DNA of 60,036 nucleotides, filler included, from Hausera hauseri (Eukaryota): NCBI GenBank assembly GCA_046269625.1. It is 12 parts of 12 records of this genome, joined end to end, with 100 filler letters (N's around TTAATTAATTAA, not from the genome) between each part and the next. Parts side by side here need not be neighbours in the genome. Positions count along the whole stretch, not along the records: positions 4,345 to 8,382 come from JBJURY010802533.1; 11 more parts are not named here. One strand, given 5' to 3'. Position 1 is the first letter of the stretch; every line of letters begins with the position of its first letter. Below the pieces are notes generated by a model. That model did not search any database. It was not told the origin of the DNA and worked only from the letters and a program-made list of their open reading frames with translations. Below, in pieces: positions 3,733 to 32,199 of the stretch. The translations under genes were made by a program, and so were the position numbers.

Positions 3733-4060
3733 GACAATATTAAAATATCTATGATCTCCGATTTCTTTTATCCAAACGTTGGTGGTGTTGAAGGCCGTAT
3801 TTCTGAATTATCTCAATGTTTGCTTCAACATAGTTATAAAGTTATTGTCATTACTCATGTATATGCTGAAAAGGACAATTATTGTCGACAAGATGTTTGA
3901 AATTTGTCAAATTGCTTAAAAGTATATTACATATTATTACATCCCACCTTTTCTATTATTCGTGACATTTCGATACGAGAGAAAATTGATATCGTTCACT
4001 GGCCATGGAATCGATTGGTGGTGCACCGTCGTTAATGATTACAAATTCTTAAGATTTATA
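3733..4060 (+). pseudogene. PIGA: PIG-A (GPI GlcNAc transferase) N-terminal fragment
   Basis: Translates as NIKISMISDFFYPNVGGVEGRISELSQCLLQHSYKVIVITHVY...V*NLSNCLKVYY...IIRDISIREKIDIVH, matching the PIG-A signature [24 protein letters not shown]. Contains a stop and internal deletions. Confidence 0.85.
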
Positions 4061-4244: not shown

Positions 4245-4344
4245 NNNNNNNNNNNNNNNNNNNNNNNNNNNNNNNNNNNNNNNNNNNNTTAATTAATTAA
4301 NNNNNNNNNNNNNNNNNNNNNNNNNNNNNNNNNNNNNNNNNNNN
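4245..4344. other. Artificial contig spacer (44N-TTAATTAATTAA-44N). Identical spacers at 8383-8482, 14057-14156, 18833-18932, 23573-23672, 30028-30127, 34969-35068, 41168-41267, 46528-46627, 51089-51188, 55282-55381
   Basis: The same 100-bp unit with a six-frame stop linker occurs 11 times. Confidence 0.99.
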
Positions 4345-4381
4345 GTAGTTTTTTATATTTTAATTTTAAAATTGTGCTAAA

Positions 4382-4460
4382 ATGGGGAAAAGGACAGAAT
4401 TATCCGTTACTGAGAGAGAAAAAATCCTTGTGTACCATGAAGAAGGATATTCTCAAAGAG
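4382..4460 (+). mobile_element. Tc1-like transposase N-terminal fragment
   Basis: MGKRTELSVTEREKILVYHEEGYSQR is a typical Tc1 first HTH start. Confidence 0.7.
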
Positions 4461-4614
4461 TCACCAAAGAGTCACATTGGTAGAAACTGTTTTGTTTATA
4501 TTACACACGTGTGCGCGCTGGAAAATGTCCAATGAGGGTTTTGTTAAAATTATATATAAACTTAGTAAAAAGAAATGAGAGACTAAATAATACTACAAAT
4601 ATTTATTAACACAA

Positions 4615-5244
4615 TTACAAATATTCGTCTGTAAAATCACCCATAGAAGCAATCACGTGCATTTGACGAGTGCTTAAATCGTAGAATCGCTCTATAAGAG
4701 TCAAAAGCCGTTGTTTTCGCGCAGCCACCACCTGTTTGATTGATGTGTCTGGATGTATCAATGATGATGTTGTTGTTGTTGTTATTGGTAAAAGTTCTAA
4801 TAAATAAAATTTTATAATTAACGTATCGTTATTATCCTGGAGAAGTGATTGTAATTTTATTAATGGAATAAATTTCGGAAATCTACATGTAATGTTGCGT
4901 TCGTCTTGTGGATTTGGTTTCATGAAACATACCGATCGTAAATCCGTTTTCAATTTGTCACAGCAGATAACCTCGCCCCATTTGTTCAGTAGTAACATTT
5001 TAATTATTGCACGAAACGGCCACTGCAACAAATCATCATGTTCACCTTTAAAAAGTGCAAAGAAAACTGATAAATTCGTACTTTTTGCGATTCAATCACC
5101 GTCCGGCTAAACGCTAATACAGAAATTTTACTGCTGCAAAATGAATGAATTACTCGTTACTACTACTACATTACTACTCGTTTTCTGGTCTGAGAAATTT
5201 TCCAATTTTCAAGTGAAGGAGGAGGTAGTTGTTGTGGTATTCAT
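4615..5244 (-). pseudogene. Intronless TRAF-type MATH (TRAF-C) domain protein
   Basis: One frame with 4 internal stops: FT*KLENF...*NFCISV*PDGD*IAKSTNLSVFFALFKGEHDDLLQWPFRAIIKMLLLN...FMKP...RNITCRFPKFIPL...NDTLIIKF. Matches the TRAF-C consensus WKI..F / YKMC.R.Y.NGDG / HLSLFF.IMRGEYDALL.WPF / DDT.FIK. Confidence 0.85.
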
Positions 5245-5391
5245 AATTTTTAAAAGAAATGAAAATGCCAGCTTTATTTGTACTAGTTTGTTGTTATTGG
5301 GAAACCTTTTATTCATGGTTGCGAAACATAATACCAGTTTTATATTGAAATAATTTACATTAGAGAAAAAGGAACACATTCGTACGTACAT

Positions 5392-5873
5392 TTAATTGTA
5401 TGAAACATAGTCTACACAAAGCGCTAAACATTTTCTGTAGGTACAATACGGTCCGTGTTCACGATACGGACATAGGATACTGTCAGTTACAACCAACGCC
5501 ACCGAGGTTGCACATGTAGTCATTCTCAGCTCTGGAAATTGCCAGTGTAGGTGTGCAAACTTTTGAGAACCAATTTGATCTTTAACGTAGAACATTGTAT
5601 TACTAATATCAAAGCAATCACAAATGTCATTCAGTATACATGTTCCACAAAAGCTTGAATTGCCTTCATGCCAATAAATTTAATGACTATGTCGTATGAG
5701 AAACGCATTGGCAATTTGCGCCTTTTCTATCTGATCTTTCCACTCACAGTCTGGCTTGAATACGTACACAAGCAGGTGGAATATGTCACAGATGTCCATT
5801 ATGCATAATTCCTTTATTATATATTGGGCATTATCATATAGAAAGCTTCAATATCTATAAATCCTGCCGCCAT
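5392..5873 (-). pseudogene. Polinton DEDD/DnaQ-like nuclease
   Basis: Homologue of 13351-13839 (MAAGFIDIE...IKEL...; C-terminal CPYREH...C..RKC). Disrupted. Confidence 0.75.
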
Positions 5874-5953
5874 TACTTATCTGTTACAAAATCATTTTTT
5901 GTTTATAACACAAGCAAAACAACTAACTAATATTATTATTATTATCACAATCA

Positions 5954-6424
5954 TTAAACATAGGTGGTTTTGTCCATATAGCTAAAGCCAAATTTTTTGC
6001 GTTCATTTCGTGTCGATTCATTGACGCAAAATAATCCCCATTGTTCCGGTGACATTACACTGAATTCCGCCTCTTTACGGCAAAGAAAAACGATTTGTGT
6101 GATTGCACTGCCTTTCGAAAAAGCATACGGTTTCCCGAATTGGTTTTCCAGCAACACCTTACTTTCACCACGAAAGTCTTAATCGATGACACCGCTGCCA
6201 CCCACAACCGTCAGTCCGAGCTTTGCAAATCCGCTTTTCGATAAAAGTTGGCCGTAATAACCGGATCGAATCGCCTATCGAATCCATGTCGTTATGCATT
6301 TGATTGTGCTATCCGGAATTGTCGTATTGACATTGGAAAACACATTGTAGCCTGCACTGTTTGCTGTAATACGTCTTGGTACAAAGGCACTTTCGTCTGT
6401 TAAAATAATCTTTACATCATTCAT
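5954..6424 (-). pseudogene. dut: dUTPase
   Basis: AFVPRRITANSAGYNV, YYGQLLSKSGFA, GVID.DFRGE, AITQIVF and a degenerate motif 5 (RNERKKFGFS). Contains stops and frameshifts. Confidence 0.9.
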
Positions 6425-6519
6425 TATCACTATTCTTATGCCAATATAAAAATTACACGTATATTTATACTCGGTAATTGGGTTAATGAAAGAAGAAGAA
6501 GAACGATAAAACAAAATTT

Positions 6520-6960
6520 ATTGATAATAAAATGTGCTTTAGCTACACACCAAATCGGGCTTTTAATACCGACCTTTTCCTTGTATCCTTGTAATTCAAT
6601 GTTCAGTCGACACTTTAAACCACAACAATCATTACAGTCGGGTACATGAGACATTTCGCGACCAATAAAATCAAACAGTTTCGTTTTCTGAGCTGGTAAA
6701 TCGACAGATTGCTGTTGCATGGTCGTCTCGTTTAACTTTAAATCCATGTTTAATTGATGCAGAACATCAGCAAGTTTATCCAAATTTTCACCCGAAAGCC
6801 GTTTTACACGACAGCTGTCCTTCGGTGCACATAAAGACACGGGATCATTCAATGAAATCAGTGCGGGAATTTGCAGAAAATGCATTTCATACTTGCGAAA
6901 AATTCGTTTTGGTAAAACTGTCTGTGTTTGGCGCGACGATGGGTTTGATTTTCGTTTATG
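6520..6960 (-). pseudogene. Conserved Polinton hypothetical protein
   Basis: Homologue of 12249-12690 (ISLNDPVSLCAPK...KTKLFDFIGREMS...CRLNI.LQ.YKEK.GI.SPIW). Confidence 0.65.
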
Positions 6961-7249
6961 TATTCCAATCATTGCGTTTTGCCTTTTTTATGTCGATTTT
7001 GCTGCTGATGATTTCTGAGAAAGTTCCTTTTTCGTTTCCGGACAATCGCCCTGCACAGAATTGACCGACTTTTATAATTGTTGGAAAGGTTCTGTTTTCG
7101 TTTCAAGCAATTTGACATTAGAATTGTCCTTTTTGTAGCAAAACAACCACGACTAATCTAAACTTTTATCAATTGCATCATTAAGTAGAATCGTTTTAAT
7201 GTCGTCTGCTATGGCAGTAATGTCTGAATGAACATGGGAATGATATTTA

Positions 7250-7728
7250 TAGTTTGTTGTGCAATGCACATTATTCTGATTCACTAAAACATTTATGTGG
7301 TTTTTAATTTGATTGATCATCGGTTTATAGTCCACTGTCTAAATACCAAGTACAACAAGTTTACCACTGCTAAGCACATTGACACAAAGTGGGCGAAACG
7401 ATGTAAGTCTCAGTGCAGGAAACAGTTCGGGTTCATATGTACATTCAGCGGCCATTGCTAATTTGTACAGATTAATTAATGGACAGTCTAACTGAGTCGT
7501 TGCAGTTATTGATTGAATTTGGTCAATGCCAATTCCGAACGGGAGTAGTTTATTAGCTGTGATTGATTTCCCATAAGCCATAATGCGACACATTTCCGAT
7601 TGAAATATGATGCATGTAAAATCCGGTGGACACTTGAGGACATACTGCCTTGACTTCCATTGATTAAAAGATATTGTGTTAATATCACACTCGGTAGCAT
7701 GTCAACGATAGTTGATATTAGCTAACAT
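7250..7728 (-). pseudogene. TATA-box binding protein (TBP)-like
   Basis: Repeat 1 TCIIFQSEMCRIM. Repeat 2 IQSITATTQL...INLYKLA...CTYEPELFPALRLTSFRPLCVNVLSSGKLVVLG, matching TBP IQN.V...I.LE.L...SYEPELFPGL...LIF.SGK.V.TG. Confidence 0.85.
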
Positions 7729-7831
7729 TATGGAAACAGTATTTATACTATAGCTATTTATATATTCGTATAACACGATTATAAACAAGTCATGTGGTGA
7801 AGAAAGTTTGTATTATTATTACTATTATTAG

Positions 7832-8382
7832 ATGAAGCTGCAGAATGACGCCATTTTCCAGATTGTAAGCCACAATGGAAGTGGAAAAACACATGTTGTA
7901 TGAAACTATTGCAGAACTACCGTAACATGTTCCATTCACCGCGGTATAATCACATTTACTGGCATCAAGATGTTGGTGATGATGGTTAGTCCAGTTTGAC
8001 ACATCAAGAATTTTGTAAATTGAAATCGATAAAGGTAATTAATGGGTTTGATGAGAACTGGTCAGAGATTACACAACGGTGACATTATTGTCATTGACGA
8101 TTTATTTTAAGAAGCAACGAAACAATAGGACTTCAACAACCTGTTCACGAAGATTGCACGACACAGTGGCGTAACGGTAATTTTCATTACGCAAAACGTG
8201 CTCCATCAGGGCGGACTGCACCAAACAAGAAATCTAAGCGTACACTATTTGGTGTTGTTCAAAAATCCCCGTGATTAGGTTATTATTAATTATGTTGCAA
8301 GACATGCATTTCCTCACAACCGAGCCTACTTGATAGATGCATATCATGATGCTACGACCGAGCCACACGGATACTTGTTCAT
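7832..8382 (+). pseudogene. Polinton A32/FtsK-like packaging ATPase
   Basis: Degenerate Walker A (SHNGSGKT), Walker B IIVIDDL, LFTKIARHSGVTVIFITQN, YLVLFKNPRD, YHDATTEPHGYLF. Truncated by the contig end. Confidence 0.9.
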
Positions 8383-8994: not shown

Positions 8995-9755
8995 TTATCG
9001 ACGACATCGAAAATGTAACGTCAAATGTGTCGTTGACCCGAAAAGAAATTTAATGGGTTCTAAAAATTCATCAAGCATATACACGGAAATACTGTGCACA
9101 ATATTGTAAGACAATGATAAGTACGTGGGGCTGAGCATATTAACGCGAACAGTTTCACCCGATGTTTTGTACGTGTCAGAATCAAGTTTGATAGAAGCCA
9201 GTAGTTGTTTACGTTCTCCACCAATGAGTACGGATTCAGTTAAATCCGTTAAAATGTTGATTCTACGAAATGCTCCATAGAGTTGTGGTTTGTATTTTGC
9301 AACAATAAATCGTCCAACAATGTTTTGATAGAATTCGCGTTTTGAAAAACCCAGATTCCGAGCCAATAATTCATCAAAGGCAAAATATGTAACATTGTCA
9401 TGTAGTATAATCGAAATATGAACATCTGCGTTTATTTCACATGTCTTTACGGCTAATGTATTCGTTTTCTTTACGTATTCACACAATTCCAGTTCCGTTT
9501 CCATTATTAAATCGTGTGGTATAATATATGAACGGAAGACTGATTCTGACTTAGTCCACTTTACTATAATATCGGATGTAATAATGTAAATGTGAATTCC
9601 GTCAAAGCCACTTCCCAGGCTCCGTGGCGTAAATCGACCGGTTGGTCCATGTGCACGGTAAACTGTTCAACGGTATTGTCGTCATTGTCGTCACGTTGTG
9701 ATAATGATCTGTTACTATCAAGTACCAAGTAAATGATGCTGCTATTGCTGCTCAT
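8995..9755 (-). pseudogene. Polinton minor capsid (penton) protein, paralogue 1
   Basis: N-terminal IYLVLDSN...NTVEQFTVHMDQPVDL..WEVALTEF. C-terminal ILTDLTESVLIGG..QLL...PTYLSL...ISVYMLDEF..PIKF...LTLHFR. One break near 9564. Confidence 0.85.
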
Positions 9756-22559: not shown

Positions 22560-23572
22560 TTACGATTTTACGCTGCTTTTTACAATTTTTGGCAACTATA
22601 TAAAATGACGCAACTAATAATAATAAGACAAACGTTGATACTCCAATGGTCGATATAACAGGTAGAGTTAAAAATTCAAATGTTTTTTGTGTTGCTACAT
22701 ATGTAGTAATTGTGTTCTGTACGTCTTTATCTTTTTGTGAATCTGGGTAAATTTTTTCTATTAAAATGTATAAGGTGATTGTTCAATTTCGTTTTCCTGC
22801 TGCATTAATTTGTATTATATATTCTGTCTGAGATTTTAAGGATTTACATTCAATTTGTTGCGTATTTCTTATGAGCACTACTTTTTTGTTTCTTATGTAG
22901 GGTTCGACAGTTTATTTTTATATCGTAGTTTAATCTTTCCTCAACAAAGAATACTATTCTATCCCGATGGATCGAATACCTGATAGGTATGTCTTCAATT
23001 CTTGCTTTACATATATTGTTCGTTGTAACAATTCGAGCGGTCGACCTTTTCGTCGAGGTTTCCATTGGAATTTTCCAAATTCTGTTTTCTGGATAGTAGA
23101 TTTGTAACTGTATACTTAGTTGATTAGGCCGTGTCTCGTATAAATCAAATCTTATTTTGAATTCTTGGTTCACGGGTATTTTACAGCACGGATGTTGCAC
23201 ACCTGCAAGGATGGAACAATATTCTATTTTCGGAGTTAGTCCTAGTGCTATTGCAAACACGATAGTAATTTCCCGACTGACCGTTAGCTCTGTCCGAGTA
23301 TTTACTTGAATACAGTGTCTTTTCTTATTCACAAAGATTGTCTGGTTATTTTCGTCTACTAGTCTTATGTCCGGGTCAGTGGATCGCAATATTTCGTTCC
23401 GTTTTACTTTATGATGCCTATTCCAAACAGGAATAACTAGTTGGAAATGTGGTTTTGTTTCATAAATTTTAGGTAATTTCGGTACGTACAGACGATAGGT
23501 CAGATTATAGGTATGTCCGAAATCTATGTCGCAACATTGCGTACGTTCTCAGGACTCAAAGTCACAATTCTT
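22560..23572 (-). pseudogene. Cys-containing type-I membrane protein (second envelope-like ORF), C-terminal part
   Basis: KNCDFES*ERTQCCDIDFGHTY...HCIQVNT...EYCSI....HPCCKI ectodomain. Hydrophobic LPVISTIGVSTFVLLLLVASF at about 22600-22670 is followed by a basic stretch. Homologous to 46628-47330. Confidence 0.65.
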
Positions 23573-23672: not shown

Positions 23673-26220
23673 CAATGTAATGACAGTTGCCAATTTATTT
23701 TTATAATCACGATAATCTACGATTTTTGTTGAAATGTATACCATATTTCAGGACGGAGGGAGTAATACATTTTGGCAATTCGTGTCTCCTGTTACGCAGT
23801 ATTTATGATCATGTCTTTGTAAATGCTTTCATAGTTAGTGACCTTTTGGTGTTATTTTGCTTCCGATAAATTCTATGATTTGTTGTATGACTTTGTCCTT
23901 CTTTTGTTCGGCAAAAATTCTAAATGTTTTATCCATTGCCAGGACTTGTTGTCTATCCACTAATTCTTTGAGTTGAGCTTTTCGCATCATCCTAATCGCG
24001 CTTGTTTTGGTTTTGAGCCTTGATAACGCGTCAGCATCGACATGTTTGATTCCGGGTTTGTACTGAAATTCAAGATTATATCATGAGATCTCTTCGATCC
24101 ATCTGTTGAGTCTACATGTCGGATTGTTTGCTCTGCCTTTCAAGATTGTAACCGCTTTATGATTCGTAACAATTATAATCTTTTGTCCGTAGACGTATGC
24201 GTTAAAGTGTCGTAAAGCTTCTTTTACAGCTAACGTTTCTAATTCTGTAACAGAGTAATTCTTTTCAGTTTTCTTAAGTAATAGTCCTCCGTATGCGATC
24301 GGATTATCCAGTTCTTCGTCTTTTCGTTTTTGCACTAACTCGTACCCAATGCCTTCTTTGCTTGCATCCGTTTTAATTATGAACGGTATGTTAAAATCAG
24401 AATATCTTAAAACTGGTTCGCTAGTTAGGATTTTCTACATTTCGTCAAAAGCTTTCTGTTCAACGTCGGTACATTTCCATTTAATCCCTTTTTAAGTAAA
24501 CGATACAAAGGCGCGTTCATTTTTGAATTGTCTGGTACATAAGTGGCGTAATACCCACATAAACCTAACCAAGGTGTTAATTACATTTGATTCTGGGGTT
24601 CCATACAGTCTCATATTTTACTTAGCAGTGATTTATCTGGTTTTGATCCTCCTTCTCCGACTATATGTCCAAGATAAGATACAGCGTTTTGAACCCATTT
24701 GCATTTCTTTGGATTTAATTTCAATCCGGCTTGTTCTATCCGCATAAGTGTGTCCTCGATATGATTTAAATGTTATTCTTCCTTTTTCGATGTTATCACG
24801 GCGTCGTCTAGATAAGCAAATGCGTGTTTTAGTCCCATTAACATCTTATTCATCATTCGGGTAAAAATAGCTGGTCCCGTTGAATTCGTATACAGCGTCG
24901 TGCGTTTTAAACGCAGTTTTATAGCGGTCTTCTTCTTCTATCTCTACTTGCCAGTATTCACATTGTAAATCGAGTGTGGTGAACCATTTTGCTCCGGAAA
25001 GCCTATCTAGGGCTTCTTTTACCGATGATAGTGGAAATATATCTTTCATCATAAGTGTGTTTAACGCTCGATAATCGATACAAAATCGGTGCTTTGTAGT
25101 AACTTTCTCCTTAACCATGAGTATAGTGGAGTACCACGATCGGTAGCTCGGTCTAATTATGTCGGCCTTCAACATTCGTTCTACTTCTTTTGTTATCTCC
25201 GGTCTCAATGAGTGTGGAGGAGGATACCATTTCGGCATCTTCTGATCTGCTAAACCTATTTCATCATTGGTGCCAGGCTTTTCTTGAACGGAATTGTTAG
25301 CCTCAAGGCCTTGGCTCTGCCATTGTCTTCTTCGTCTTTATCGATAACTTAGTTATAACGGCAAAGTAATTCGTAAAATCGGCAGTATGACTCGGGCGAA
25401 AATTTAGTTTCAACATGAGGTGGAAATTCGGCACATTTGTAAGGTTTTTCTTTAATCATTATTTCCGATACTCTATAAGTATGCCCAAAGTTGTGTTAGC
25501 ATATAATCTAATCGGAATTGGTGCGTTATTAGCTATTCTATTGGGCATACGACCCGTCGATACTCTTGTTAATACGTTACTGAGCACAATGCTTGGATTT
25601 GACGATTCTCTTGGTTCGAAATACACTGGTTGGTCGTTATCCTGACGTATCTGAGAATATATTAATACTTTGGTTCTGGGTGAAATGTTCTCGTCTACTG
25701 GGATCCAAACTTCTCCGAATTGCCTAATCTTGGTAGTTTTAACCCCTTTTATCGGTCCAAGTTTTATTAATTTCCCTGCATGGACGTCTATGGCTACATT
25801 CGGTAGTTGTCGCAACAAATCGCATCCTAATACTACATCATCCGTCAATTGTTCCATTACTGAAAATTCGTGATGTAAAGATTGTACCATTATTCGTATT
25901 TCCGATCTCCATCGGAATTTGCTTTTCGACGATTGTCCAAAAGCTTCGACGTTTCCTAAGTCTGTTGCTGGAGGTCAGTATAATTGCTTTCGTAAAAGCT
26001 GCCGCATTGAATCATAGTTTATCAGGATATCTCAGATCCTGTGTCTATCAATGCGTAGACCTCCCAATCTTCTAGCTGGATTTTTGCAAAAGGCCTACCT
26101 TCGATTATCGTACCATAGTAATTTGGTGCTAATTTTTGGATGTCGTATGCTTGACACCTTGTAGCCGTTAATGGTAACTTCAGTGGTTCCAACCGGCTGA
26201 TCGATTAGTTGCCTTAACAC
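23673..26220 (-). pseudogene. pol: Ty3/gypsy protease-RT-RNase H (to the start of integrase)
   Basis: ALIDTGSEIS (DTG at 26037-26045), RFCIDYRALN, TLDLQ.EYWQV, FAYLDD, KTDAS, EKNYSVTELETLAV, DADALSR. Confidence 0.93.
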
Positions 26221-26686
26221 TCCAATTGGGTTTAACTCATTATTCGTACCATTTACATTTCCCGTTTCTTGACTTCGAACTGGCGACTGTGTTTCTTCGT
26301 TTCGGCCGTTCTGCGCTTCATGATCTCTTGAGAAATTGATCGCATTTCTTTTGGTCTGGGTACTCTAGGCAAATAAATTATACCGTATTCGTCGACTGCT
26401 GAACGACGATATGGGGCAGGCGTCCTTTTTATTTCGTGAACCTTACGTAATATACCATAGTGCTTTGCTCCTTCATAAGGATCCTGAAGGTTAAACAGTT
26501 TTCGACAAACATCTGTTAGATATAAACTCGTAGACTTTTTCTCACAGTCTTGGTATATGGATGCAGTTGTCAGTAATATTGGTAATGGCGGTTTTATAAC
26601 AGAGTAGCTTTTGTGTCTATTGGTCTTTGAGACGGCGTCTCGTCAATGTTATTCCTCTGTGTTTTGACATTTGTGAATTTATGTTT

Positions 26687-28737
26687 TTAATTAAAGATGT
26701 GTCTCTTTTTTCGTTTTCGATTATGGTAGCCAACATGTCGTTCTACATCCGCATTCCATCTACTTTCTTCATAAGCTTTTAGAAATTTTCCGAAAGGTGT
26801 GATAAAAACCGTTAAAATTTTGCATGAAAATCCCGTCAGGCTGAATATCTCATATCCGTTTATAATCACTTGAATTGTTGCTTTAACCACCTGAATTAAA
26901 AAGTAGATTGCTAGGAATCCTGATGCGGCTTGTCCGAATATCGGAAACCTTCCCCAAATTTTATACAATATTTCAGTAGTCACCTTTTGGTAGTAGTTAA
27001 CACCAAGTAACGATTCCCATTTCGCTTGATAACGCGAGTCTTCTAGTATTGTATGCACCGCTCTGTTTAATTCATGCGTCCGTTGGCGTGGAAAAGCAAG
27101 AAATTGTCTAAATGCTTCTACATCTTTCGGTCGATAAATACCTTTTGCGGCGGTATCTTGAAACTTATAGTAGGTTATTCCCTTTATCAAGTTTGTTCGC
27201 GTCAGTTTGGCGGGTGGCGCGATTATGCCACCGTTCAGTAAACTTACCCAATCGGTTTCGCTCTGTCGGAACATTGGCTCGCCTAGGCTGCTCGTGCAAT
27301 CTCTCATAATTGTCGGTTGAGTAGAGTTTGCCAACAATACTCTAGTAATTGGTGTTACTAATCTAGTAGGCTGTTCGACTACATCTTTTTGCGTTTTCGA
27401 GTTAGTATCTATTCTGCTCATGTAACGTTTTCTTGTCATCTCATTAAACTTACGTTCTTTGATCTTAATGAAATTGCAGTCAGTATTACAGCACGTCTTG
27501 ATATATCACTGGAAGTTCCTGTATACACCTCTTCTCTTCCACATTAATGGGTACATCCCTTTTTCATAAATCAGTAGAACTTCTCCAGTCACTCGGCTGA
27601 AAACGCCTTCTTTCATCGGAATTATTGGCGGCGCCATTTCGGGATTGGCATAGATTAAGGCCAACGTGGTTGTCATGACTTCTAAGTCTAATTTGCAGTC
27701 ATTTGTTATCATCTTGTGATATAACTCGACTACTACAGCCTGTCCCTTATAGTAGAAGTAGTCTTCTCTGTTCTTCAAATAATCCTCGATTCGGATATCT
27801 TGAGTATCCAGCTTGAACGTTTTGGCATTAATTTCAGTCTCAGCCACAAAGAATGCTTCATAGTTTGTGGCATAAATTACTACATCACATCATGCAAGTT
27901 CGTCCTTCTTTACGAATTTTAATCCATGAGTATCGGAGATTAATATGGTAGGTGTAGGCTGTTGGACTACATCTTTTCGCGTTTTTGAGCTAGTATCTAT
28001 GCTGTTCATGTAACGTTTTCCTGTCGTCCCATTAAACTTAAGTTCTTTGATCCTGATGAAATTGCAGTCAGTCTTGGCTGGTGGTTCCCAAATTACGACT
28101 GAACTTCTAAAAGCACAGGAGCCGTCTTAAATGTGACACTTTTGGTTTTCCGTATAGAGCTTAGTAACGCTATGAAACATTACTTTTTGTGTGGGCATCT
28201 CAATTTCGTAGAAATCCACAACCACTATGTTTGATTCCAATCCTTTTCCAGTATCGTATTCTGCACAGTTGCAGTGACCTGCTATTTTGTATGCTCTGAT
28301 TATTTTCCCTTGCTGCATTCCTAATTTCATGCTCTCCCATTTCAGCCTGCCTGTCTCTCTGGCCTGTTTATAGGGCTGCCGTTCTAAGTTCGTTGGAATT
28401 AACGGGGTCGTTGGCTTGATTATAAATGAATGCCAATGAATTAATTCACAATGGAAAATACTGCTAGAACGTCGTAACATGCATTCTATCCAATCCAATG
28501 AGACCAATTCTCGTTGCTGGTACAGCATATATCTCTTTTCTTTTTTTTTAATTTATGTGGTCTCGCATCTTTGCACATTTCCAAATACATCAATAAATAC
28601 CGTTGACCAAGCCTGAATTTATCACAGTCATATATTTTAACTGCTCCCATTTGCCGTATTAACATCATCACGGTCAGAAAATTAATTAGCCTGTTTGGTT
28701 CGTTTCCTCGATTATTTCCATTTAAGTTTCGTAACAT
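26687..28737 (-). pseudogene. env: Chuvirus-like (class III, gB-like) envelope glycoprotein
   Basis: Signal-like NFLTVMMLIRQMGA then IYDC; IECMLRRS..FHC..H; AG.C..AEY; LYHKMITNDCKL..EV...LAL...NPE; RVTGEVL; PITRVL; GIYRPKDVEAFRQFLAFP; KIWGRF..FGQAASGFLAIYFLIQVVK...NGYEIF. Collinear with the chuvirus glycoprotein pattern I recognise. Confidence 0.88.
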
Positions 28738-28824
28738 GTCTTCAAATCTACTATTATTGTTACTAACGAAGGGCCTGTTTTGACATATCGCATCTTTTCC
28801 GAATAGTTTGGACCAATCTATTTC

Positions 28825-29841
28825 TCAGGGTAATTTCCTATCGGTCTTTCGTGCTAGACTATTGGCCTTGTTAAATTCATTTTCCCGGACTGGATTTGTT
28901 CTAATGGCCAAATATAATAATTCTTTCCGCAGCTCTTCTATGGTGTTCTCTACCATAATTTTCTCGATCACCAATTCATAGCTTAAGGTGCTTCTCGATA
29001 ATTTACAGCGGAAATTCTTCATTGTTCTGGCTGCATTCAATATAGATTTCTCCTTTTCGTCTAATATATCGCCACAGAGACTGGAGTGATTTGCTATGCG
29101 TATCAAATTTTTCATGAGTTCATTTAACTCTTCATTTTCCGTGTTAAAGGTCGATATGGACATTTGCCTTAATTCTCTAATTAAATCTCCATTATAGTCA
29201 ATTTCTTCTCGCATTTTCCGCGGTCTACCGACGGGACGCTTCTGTTTCGCTATTAATGACACGGTTTCACTAGGTGGTACTAAATTCTTATCAAACTGTT
29301 CTTTATCTTCATCTGTTTGTAAGTATTCGAAACACATTGTTGCGTCTCGAACGCCGATGACGCGTCCTACACACTGATCAGTTTTGGCCTTTTTTGTGGC
29401 TTGTTCCTTTGTTTCTTGCATAGCAAGCGTTACTACTATCCGATTTGTTTCACCTGAGATAATTCCGACGTCTATTAATAGTTCCAGTTCGTATGATATT
29501 CTACCTATAAAGTAAAATCTATAATTTTGTTCGCTTGCGCAACCATTACTTATTAGCCACTGTATCACGTCTCTTACGTAGGAGTGCGTAGTGAACTCGC
29601 GCTCTTTCTCGTCCATCCAGTCCGACGACATTCTTATTTTAATCGGCTCCTCGGTTTTAGCACTTAAGATTTCCGCATACTCCCTTATCAAAAGTTTTGG
29701 CACGGCACTATAAGTTGTACCTTCGCTAGATAGTTTAGTCAGGGTAGGAACTAACTTTCTTAACTGAATTTTTGTGAAGTTTACATTAATTAACTTAATT
29801 AAATCTTTCTCAGTTTGCACCGAGTCCCGAAGCATTTTCAC
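28825..29841 (-). CDS. Pre-env accessory domain with AT-hook-like GRPRK
   Basis: 338-aa ORF in frame with env across a single TGA. Shares GRPRK, EL...LI..AN and KSI...AR with 45384-46214. Confidence 0.65.
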   Translation of the reverse strand: MKMLRDSVQTEKDLIKLINVNFTKIQLRKLVPTLTKLSSEGTTYSAVPKLLIREYAEILSAKTEEPIKIRMSSDWMDEKEREFTTHSYVRDVIQWLISNGCASEQNYRFYFIGRISYELELLIDVGIISGETNRIVVTLAMQETKEQATKKAKTDQCVGRVIGVRDATMCFEYLQTDEDKEQFDKNLVPPSETVSLIAKQKRPVGRPRKMREEIDYNGDLIRELRQMSISTFNTENEELNELMKNLIRIANHSSLCGDILDEKEKSILNAARTMKNFRCKLSRSTLSYELVIEKIMVENTIEELRKELLYLAIRTNPVRENEFNKANSLARKTDRKLP

Positions 29842-32199
29842 ACCGAACCTCTGATCTGATAGACATGTATCTGTTTCTTACAATCGTACGAGAGTTTTCG
29901 GATTTTCAGCAACCATTGCGTTTAACATGCATCCCATTCTTGTTCACTTTCACTGTCCGGCGGTCGATAATCAATTGTCGAATTGTGCATCTACTGGTCT
30001 GGCCATATATTTAACCTGTATTGATCCNNNNNNNNNNNNNNNNNNNNNNNNNNNNNNNNNNNNNNNNNNNNTTAATTAATTAANNNNNNNNNNNNNNNNN
30101 NNNNNNNNNNNNNNNNNNNNNNNNNNNAGATGCAAACTGAGTCACTCAATTATATTATCAAAAACATCTTCAAACAATTTTTTAGACCTTTCCAGTGTTT
30201 CTACTAGACATATTGGCCTTGGGAGGGCTGCTTATGAAAACAGAATGATCAACAGCAGAAAAGTCACAAGTTTTTATTATTAGAGAGTCCAGCTTTGTTA
30301 AAAAACACAATTTACAGAACATTAAAAAGTCTGCAATTAGCATTAATTGAATCTTATAAAGTCTATCTCATATCTAAAGATACATTTAAGATATCTTGAA
30401 CTGGAGTCTCCATACAACTTAATGATAAATCAGATGTTATTTATACTATTCATGATGCCTCGAACACCTTGGTGTGGTCCATTCTGTCTGTCATAGTGAT
30501 TCTCCATATTAGATCTGAACTTCATTGTCGTTTCATTTGTTCCTCTACAAGTACTTTAACGATTTTCTTTAGATCTGTTCTTTGTCTTTCTATTGCATTC
30601 GTCTCTTGCATCTCTTCTGCATTCTGTGCGTGTACTTTCTGAGTCGTTTGTTAACTTTATACAGTCAATCACATTGAAGATTGTCTATTCTTTTGTTTGG
30701 GAAAAACATTCGCACCATAACTTTGTCGCCGAATGTCAATTTTTGTCTAATACAATTATTCTGTTTTGGGGGTCTTTTTTGAATTTTTCCAGCTGCTGTC
30801 TCAGTTTGGTGACATATTCACTCAGATTTCCCCCGCCCCATTTCTTTTCGAGATTTAACTATATCCTCATTCGTTTTGCAAATATCGTCTCGTTTGGCAT
30901 TGCAAACAACCTTTCTAAATAGTCGTTCAACATTTCTATCCTTTTGCTGGTATTTTCGGGAGGTCGTCTATTTCTGATTACTCAAAAATTATCTTGTTCT
31001 TGAATGAAATTCTTATATCGGAGTATATTATTCCTGGAATGCCGAATAACACAATCTACTTAGTAAATAACAATGTTGCAATATTTTCGTAGTTACGTTC
31101 TTTAGAGTGATTGACATCGGACGTTTTCAATAGTTGGCAAAGTAAAGAAGACTTTACTCGGCAAAGTCGGAGGATCGAAATCCTGAAGATCCCTTAGATT
31201 CTTGTCGCACATAAATCAAATTGAAGTCTAATCAGTTTTTAAAATGTATTTATTTTTATCCAATATTTAAGCAAATTAAAAATAAATAATAATTTACTTA
31301 TTATTTATTTTTGATGCTCCATTACTTTCCCCTCTCCTTTATGATCCTTGTTCACTCTTTTCAACCATTCCACTCTTCTACGAATTATTCTACCATCTTC
31401 CATGTTTTTCAACTCCCACTGATGCGGCGAAATTTGTTAAATTATTTGATACAGTCCTTCGAACTGATAAGCATTTTTTCTTTTTTTCTGAGGATCTACT
31501 TTCACGAAAACTTTTTGTCCAATTTCAAAATTTCGTTTCCTTCCCTTCGCCCCTTCGAAATGTTCCATTCGGTTAGCTGCTTCTGTAATATGTTTTTGTA
31601 ACACTGTCTGTCTTATGACTCCTCAATCCATAAAATTTTATCGTCTCTTCATTCTTCAAATTTTCATCCTCAGCACTTTCTGATTGTAGATGCAATATCC
31701 TGATGACATTATCTATGAACATTAATATTTTCATGGTTGTATGTTGGTCTGTACATTTATACATTGTTTCTGGCATTTTATGTCTACGTACTTGACTTTA
31801 TCCTTCAGGAGTTGAACAGTCTGATTGGTACTAACTATCAAGTCAGATGTTTTAAGATTTCCTTTCTATCTCTATATAGCAGAGTATCATCCGATTGTTA
31901 TTCATTTTGACGTACGGTGGGCCTATCACTTCATTTCTTAGTAATTCCCAATCATTTATTAATTCCCTTTAGAGATGATGCAGTTTTCTCTTGAAATACC
32001 TCATCGATTACTGATGGAACGGTTATCCCATTATATATGTGTATATAATTGTGTAAATTTGGTAGGATCCAATCATATATTTCAGTAACTTTTCGACGCG
32101 CATCAATAGTTAGCCGCAGTTCCCATTTTGTATTGCTTGGTTAATTAGGCAAAGCTAATACTGTCATTTGACGGATTTTTCGAACCTGATTATCTGTAT

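Follow-up and report, generated by a model that had tools for sequence, protein, structure and literature searches.

The locus described here raises the question of whether a gene for a TRAF-C (MATH) domain, placed directly behind the gene block of a Polinton-like element, belongs to that element and, if it does, from where it was taken and what its product might do. Polintons are thought to be viruses, and a host target is clear for few of their accessory genes. An earlier note on this DNA had proposed a captured innate-immunity antagonist and had left its membership of the element open.

A MATH domain gene beside a Polinton-like gene block

The window, by which we mean the whole stretch of 60,036 nucleotides that was analysed (Hausera hauseri, assembly GCA_046269625.1), consists of 12 unrelated contigs of 4–6 kb each, most of them transposon fragments, concatenated via N44-TTAATTAATTAA-N44 spacers. 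Adjacency or a long inverted repeat across contigs, whether at the spacer at 4245–4344 or at the 10 others, is a joining artefact. The MATH gene and the Polinton gene block, however, both lie within contig 2 (4345–8382), so that their adjacency is real despite the artificial joins, and an origin of this arrangement by contig joining is ruled out. On its plus strand contig 2 has the beginning of a P-loop ATPase gene; on the minus strand lie a TBP-like gene, a dUTPase gene, an upstream gene that the earlier note had called a nuclease, and the MATH gene. The features of this contig (copy 1 of the element) and of a second copy are as follows.

4245–4344, no strand: assembly spacer, non-biological; to its left is an unrelated Gypsy contig
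4382–4459, plus: Tc1/mariner-like transposase HTH start, not part of the Polinton, abutting the truncation point (Pfam HTH_38 E 1e-4, HTH_SB E 0.04, both below cut-off)
4471–4614, no strand: element sequence 3' of the MATH stop, common to other copies (records 1, 2 and 9; six loose ends before 4471)
4615–5244, minus: MATH/TRAF-C gene of 209 codons, a broken copy with four in-frame stops and short Thr-repeat stretches
4630–4749, minus: C-terminal heptad helix of ∼40 residues (about residues 166–205), a predicted oligomerisation or partner-binding coil, from alignment and heptad pattern; conserved in the relatives P0009, P0167, P0168 and P0169
4807–5220, minus: TRAF-type MATH domain, residues 9–146 (Pfam MATH_2 E 2.4e-20; PDB TRAF1/2/3/5)
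5245–5393, no strand: spacer of ∼150 bp from the upstream Polinton gene to the MATH start, present in diverged copies too (records 4, 5, 6 and 7 of run X1; records 12 and 13 of run X2)
5394–5873, minus: upstream Polinton gene ('nuclease'), frameshifted in copy 1, open in copy 2 (13351–13839)
6062–6382, minus: dUTPase remnant of the element (Pfam dUTPase E 2e-14)
7333–7521, minus: TBP-like domain of the element (Pfam TBP E 4e-9 / 3e-8)
7860–8382, plus: 5' part of a P-loop ATPase gene, packaging-ATPase-like, with a Walker A motif in the translation; start approximate, gene cut by the contig end
8483–14056, no strand: copy 2 of the element on a separate contig, with ATPase, integrase and capsid-like ORFs on minus and TBP, dUTPase and 'nuclease' on plus
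13928–13984, plus: RING-finger-like remnant in copy 2 (Pfam zf-C3HC4_3 E 1.3e-4, 22 bits, below the 27-bit cut-off)

Two other fragments in the window may be mentioned here. The end of Gypsy contig 1, at about 3750–4050, contains a piece that resembles a glycosyltransferase N-terminus (PIG-A-like), and 18933–23572 (minus) is part of an element that encodes a C3HC4 RING (E 7e-5) besides long ORFs that have no Pfam matches.

The reading frame of the MATH gene runs on the minus strand from an ATG at 5244 to a stop at 4615, with no frameshift and no need for an intron, and is interrupted at codons 12, 39, 46 and 51 (plus-strand positions 5209–5211, 5128–5130, 5107–5109 and 5092–5094). Scored with X in place of the stops, it matches Pfam MATH_2 over model positions 1–134 of 136 (73.6 bits, cut-off 32; E 2.4e-20) and TRAF-mep_MATH with 61.2 bits (cut-off 27.4; E 1.6e-16), and its top PDB matches are the TRAF domains of TRAF1, TRAF2, TRAF5 and TRAF3 (E 3e-16 to 6e-13). 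The earlier description of a complete, intronless TRAF-type MATH domain with four stops is thus borne out, both profiles of the HMM search that it had called for lying above cut-off. A profile of the protein family described below gives the gene 198.9 bits, compared with 7.4 for the best of 500 shuffles. No second MATH domain is found elsewhere in the window. An identity as a host exon was considered and rejected, since no splicing is needed and the gene has its own ATG, common to its intact relatives.

Neither a RING nor zinc fingers are found in the six frames of contig 2, as had been claimed. The accompanying statement that the gene lacks a coiled coil holds for the TRAF-N coil, which is absent from its usual place directly before TRAF-C (the gene and its relatives start at the MATH domain), but not for the C terminus, where a heptad helix is present and conserved. 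The surroundings of the gene include no poly-A tail (the longest downstream run of A is 6) and no LTR or gag sequence beside it.

The element and its sister copies

As judged from sequence, the label Polinton rests on gene content and copy number rather than on the full set of defining features, because PolB and terminal repeats are absent from both fragments. PolB gives no match within either fragment, both contigs being pieces of 4–6 kb, and neither contig shows a terminal inverted repeat or an AG-type terminus, copy 1 being cut at about 4471. A retroviral-type integrase may be represented by rve matches in copy 2 (E 3e-4 and 5e-4, below cut-off and frameshifted) and by none on contig 2. A packaging ATPase may be represented by a Walker A motif in both copies and by weak AAA and Pox_A32 matches in copy 2 (E 0.015–0.03, Pox_A32 at 0.03), and ORF 8995–9666, which has no Pfam or PHROG match, may encode a minor capsid protein. 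The gene block is compact, intronless, dispersed and multi-copy, with 19,383 contigs of one public run (X1, below) matching contig 2 and a second copy at 80% identity within the window. Both copies carry a TBP-like domain (7333–7521 and 11481–11924), an unusual accessory gene for an animal Polinton. Polintons have been described as abundant in Dugesia (bioRxiv 10.64898/2025.12.11.693146), and in planarians smedwi-2 knockdown releases them from repression (PMC8532177).

The upstream gene is on the same strand as the MATH gene and terminates near 5394–5401, ∼150 bp ahead of the MATH ATG. This placement agrees with the earlier note; its label 'nuclease' does not fare as well, for the gene has no Pfam, PHROG or PDB match. 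Its predicted model is of low confidence (pLDDT 34), two of nine candidates match as relatives (62–65%), and the Atlas gives unnamed eukaryotic clusters at 0.97 with a Maelstrom lead at 0.87; locus searches with it returned no match. An exonuclease-type fold is plausible.

Copy 2 matches copy 1 with 80% identity over 5362–7941, diverges right after the 'nuclease' gene and ends in a CAC repeat, which confirms that it departs from copy 1 and stops short of the MATH gene. Directly after the 'nuclease' gene, in the slot that the MATH gene holds in copy 1, it has the RING-like remnant. Since this remnant, with its score below cut-off, stands where copy 1 has MATH, the slot appears variable, and the comparison suggests a swappable slot for ubiquitin-signalling cargo.

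At its other end copy 1 stops at about 4471, where six other contigs continue differently. An 11-bp tandem duplication (4454–4475) lies where the Tc1-like transposase start meets the truncated Polinton, and record 8 of run X2 matches 4345–4460, beyond which record and window differ.

Whether the MATH gene travels with the element can be judged from sister copies. The contig 2 stretch is present in two public runs: X1, which includes one piece that agrees with the window letter for letter and may be the sample it came from, and X2, which is labelled as another organism. In X1, 309 contigs fall on 4345–5520, and 162 of them are less than 90% alike. Among the matches listed, records 4 and 5 span ORF and spacer with 55 of 390 and 61 of 388 letters different (86% and 84% alike), record 7 extends from the spacer into the upstream gene, and record 6, with 35 of 284 letters different (88% identical) and its own 43-base deletion over the MATH start, joins 112 letters of the ORF to 48 of the upstream gene on a single contig. 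X2 contributes pieces of ORF and spacer that are 82–92% alike. The contigs of both runs are short, none among the matches listed spanning a whole sister ORF; records 4–7, which between them bridge ORF, spacer and upstream gene, nevertheless show that the same arrangement, with the MATH gene at the same position behind the upstream gene, exists in several copies that are 10–16% apart. Within stop codons 12, 39, 46 and 51 another letter is found in 13, 19, 11 and 9 contigs respectively, and the stops are therefore private decay of copy 1. In one further X1 contig 4512 is followed directly by 5383, the arrangement expected of a copy that lacks the MATH cassette; with a short side of only 22 letters this is a hint only.

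We conclude that the gene is very probably cargo of a multi-copy Polinton subfamily, carried behind its dUTPase and 'nuclease' genes. Membership of the element, left open earlier, now has the support of diverged sister copies, including the bridge to the upstream gene in record 6. The comparison with other copies proposed in the earlier note finds the gene in them; copy 1 is truncated, and no terminal inverted repeat is seen on it. The case that the same note had set against its reading, a single host processed pseudogene, fails and is rejected: there are many copies, no poly-A tail and an intact family that shares one start, and the closest full-length TRAF is only 39% identical.

Intact relatives and the probable source of the domain

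A word-index protein search with the X-read gene gave no match. In a full HMMER scan of 1.84 billion representatives the best single-domain matches are two MATH-first proteins (61% and 46%), and a profile built from these finds 11 proteins among 400 candidates, seven of which are intact and MATH-first, with 155–213 aa; three further relatives are cluster members. The intact relatives, which come from contigs of 0.8–6.4 kb, are 43–60% identical to the gene, compared with at most 39% for full-length TRAFs. At 46–70% identity they share one start and the MATH-first architecture, most of them also the C-terminal helix, and this persistence of a common start and a new helix points to long selection on the architecture. 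Five intact members agree completely in 54 columns; copy 1 keeps 42 of these, whereas intact members keep 87–100% (leave-one-out), as expected for the decay of a once-selected gene.

The predicted model of P0009 (pLDDT 83) comprises a TRAF-C sandwich followed by a 40-residue helix (149–188), and matches the TRAF-C folds of TRAF1, TRAF2, TRAF3 and TRAF5 with E about 1e-11 and rmsd 2.2–3.2. A heptad-pattern C-terminal helix is found in the copy 1 gene, P0009, P0167/P0176, P0168 and P0169; three of the seven clusters (P0004, P0170 and P0171) lack it or have a short one. GDG-x-G is kept in 10 of the 11 family members. The Ser-Ser-Phe loop motif of human TRAF2 is absent from all 11, and a TNFR-type ligand motif therefore cannot be assumed.

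Searches for family loci gave no match in viral contigs, bar one marginal 21-residue hit (L003) with no match to the genes of the window, and two host-type full-length TRAFs in metagenomes. The Atlas shows generic MATH clusters at 0.89–0.91 but none dedicated to the family, small clusters being outside that search. Three very long proteins, P0002 (3052 aa), P0003 and P0005, contain up to 13 MATH domains together with TRAF zinc fingers, and are probably either merged tandem TRAF genes or real multi-MATH proteins.

The origin of the family was approached through two trees, both built without any Burro MATH sequence. In a quick tree, computed from the 75 top-scoring members of a set of 178 proteins with the domain (near-duplicates dropped), the family has a support of 100 and is the neighbour of four TRAFs; resolution is weak, and three long-branch rows fall on that side too. 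A more careful tree of 27 rows chosen by hand, from which P0130, P0137, P0059 and P0174 (long-branch) and P0169 (near-duplicate) were left out, recovers the family as one clade (100/100) with a long stem (0.91), and separates the family plus four TRAFs from 16 others with support 99/96. Two of these four neighbours are named planarian proteins, Dugesia TRAF-2-like A and Dendrocoelum TRAF-4. A loop motif, Cys-[FYN]-x-[KQR]-Pro, occurs in 10 of 11 family members, in all four planarian-type proteins and in 14 of 186 others.

The planarian TRAF-2A-type host genes (Dugesia ADF47429.1; Dendrocoelum T1DBK6) are the nearest full-length relatives, with up to 39% identity to copy 1 and 46% to intact members; they have the loop motif in common with the family and are its sister in the 27-row tree. 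They differ in that they keep zinc fingers and a TRAF-N coil and end at the MATH domain, and a RING-type Cys pattern is visible in the full-length proteins. The family was likely captured from a flatworm TRAF-2A-type gene. The donor is likely rather than proven, because a forced grouping of the family with vertebrate/coral-type TRAFs is not rejected by the AU test (p 0.16); the earlier proposal of capture from a host accordingly finds support in the 99/96 grouping with planarian TRAF-2A-like proteins, while the AU test is not decisive.

A Gypsy element at 23673–30027 (minus) encodes, upstream of protease/RT, a fusion glycoprotein of Monjiviricetes (mononegavirus) type (E 2e-38), and also has an internal 122-nt duplication. 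The same order, with env between gag and pol, is described for the Burro elements of planarians (PMC6431247). From the TRAF tree and this order of the fusion gene, the host lineage would be a flatworm, likely a planarian.

A proposed decoy adaptor and its rivals

Dominant-negative TRAF2 mutants block signalling, in a system where TRAF-N trimerises and TRAF-C binds motifs on receptors and adaptors (PMC9406534). By the mechanism that we propose, capture would have retained only the peptide-binding TRAF-C and lost TRAF-N together with the RING and zinc fingers; the helix gained at the C terminus would likely restore oligomerisation and with it avidity. From a transcribed element, the protein would be expected to sit on the TRAF-binding motifs of host receptors or adaptors and to bring no ubiquitin ligase to them, which would blunt the TBK1 or TAK1/p38 signalling that depends on TRAFs and serves to silence foreign DNA or to kill the cell. 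We put the probability that the intact product is such a decoy adaptor, dampening host TRAF signalling in stress and cell death, at about 0.5.

The TNFR/TLR and NF-κB setting of the earlier proposal fits poorly with a likely planarian host. No clear NF-κB, cGAS or STING homologues were found in planarians in the account of PMC13563047, by which planarian TBK1 limits foreign-DNA expression and induces TRAFs; the planarian outputs of relevance are TBK1 (PMC13563047) and TAK1/p38 (PMC4993586), and NF-κB is the wrong read-out. Knockdown of planarian TRAF2-like genes, moreover, leads to more cell death or worse infection pathology (PMC7586133, PMC4993586), so that a plain dominant negative could harm the element's own host cell.

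These same reports, in which planarian TRAF2-like genes are pro-survival or inhibitory (PMC7586133, PMC4993586), make a serious rival of the reading that the gene is element cargo but an active adaptor. As a TRAF1-like scaffold or MATH substrate receptor, its MATH domain would pick a host target and its C-terminal helix would recruit a RING ligase or survival factor in trans, with degradation of a restriction factor or cell survival as the outcome. The RING-like remnant in the same slot of copy 2 is consistent with this, as are the Burro elements of planarians, which join RING, MATH_TRAF_C, BIR and BCL2 motifs (PMC6431247), and the IAP and Bcl2 homologues of adintoviruses (PMC8502044); but no RING gene is seen in the MATH-bearing copy, RING and MATH alternating in the slot, and the helix on which recruitment would depend is missing in three of seven clusters. 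We consider an active adaptor rather unlikely. A pro-death or release function would follow the example of the megalocytivirus TRAF, ISKNV ORF111L, which binds TRADD and triggers caspase-8 apoptosis (PMC3352826). The best viral fold matches include TRAFs of megalocytiviruses, and blockade of planarian TRAF2 would be expected to raise cell death (PMC7586133). ORF111L, however, retains a RING and coiled coil (PMC3352826) that the Polinton MATH family has in neither case, at an identity to the megalocytivirus proteins of just 29–30%, and such a function is improbable.

It is just as hard to credit that the gene never served the element, a host TRAF retrocopy or Burro-type MATH ORF having landed once by a Polinton fragment and then been copied passively. 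Raw material for such an event would be plentiful, with >120 MATH transcripts in planarian genomes (PMC6109357, PMC7586133) and a stand-alone MATH ORF in a Burro-like element (PMC6431247); copy 2 is without the gene, and no terminal repeat is seen on the truncated copy 1. Against this, the sister copies at 10–18% divergence are mostly free of the stops of copy 1, the intact relatives keep their start and new helix across 46–70% identity, and the gene has no poly-A tail, LTR or gag next to it.

Comparison with known systems places the decoy reading in context. TRAF-C on a mobile element has a precedent in Burro/GYPSM1, the giant LTR retrotransposons of planarians, where a Dugesia tigrina element has it as a separate accessory ORF (PMC6431247); there the carrier is an LTR retrotransposon and the domain is usually part of a polyprotein with RING, BIR and BCL2 (PMC6431247), whereas the Polinton gene has a DNA-element carrier and a C-terminal helix on its ORF, the two being likened by description and not by sequence kinship. 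ISKNV ORF111L is likewise a host-derived TRAF gene of the same TRAF-C fold in an animal dsDNA virus, but at 296 aa it keeps a RING and coiled coil, is pro-apoptotic and fish-derived, and shares 29–30% identity (PMC3352826). The 'TRAF' gene of a MELD virus, compared here by its figure legend label, is annotated with a TRAF3-like fold in a Polinton-related genome with adintovirus-like PolB, but comes from non-animal eukaryote datasets and rests on structural prediction (PMC8502044). Vertebrate TRAF1 and engineered dominant-negative TRAF2 also retain TRAF-C without a RING; TRAF1, however, keeps its trimerising N-terminal coil, while the coil of the Polinton gene comes after MATH.

In the literature searched we found no report of a TRAF/MATH gene in an animal Polinton; this covered the supplement text of PMC8502044, which has no TRAF or planarian entry, with the figures and genome maps of that paper and Repbase outside the scope. 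TRAF-C on mobile elements is already known, from Burro and from megalocytiviruses, and what appears new is the animal-Polinton carrier and the order MATH then coil, a structural variant of the TRAF module.

A host-derived TRAF-C kept across diverged copies is evidence that Polintons are selected for interference with host signalling. Should the host be a planarian, Burro and Polinton, giant elements of unrelated kinds, would both have acquired this one host domain, a coincidence suggesting that in planarians TRAF signalling restricts mobile DNA. More speculatively, and with some doubt on our part, flatworm Polintons may carry dedicated captured TRAF decoys, MATH first and coil last, in a slot swappable with a RING gene, as the DNA-virus party to an arms race in which Burro was armed as well and which contributed to the TRAF expansion of planarians; the partners of these decoys would then expose the planarian DNA-sensing pathway upstream of TBK1. 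In animals described as without recognisable cGAS, STING or clear NF-κB (PMC13563047), what this small protein binds could give a lead to the missing sensor pathway.
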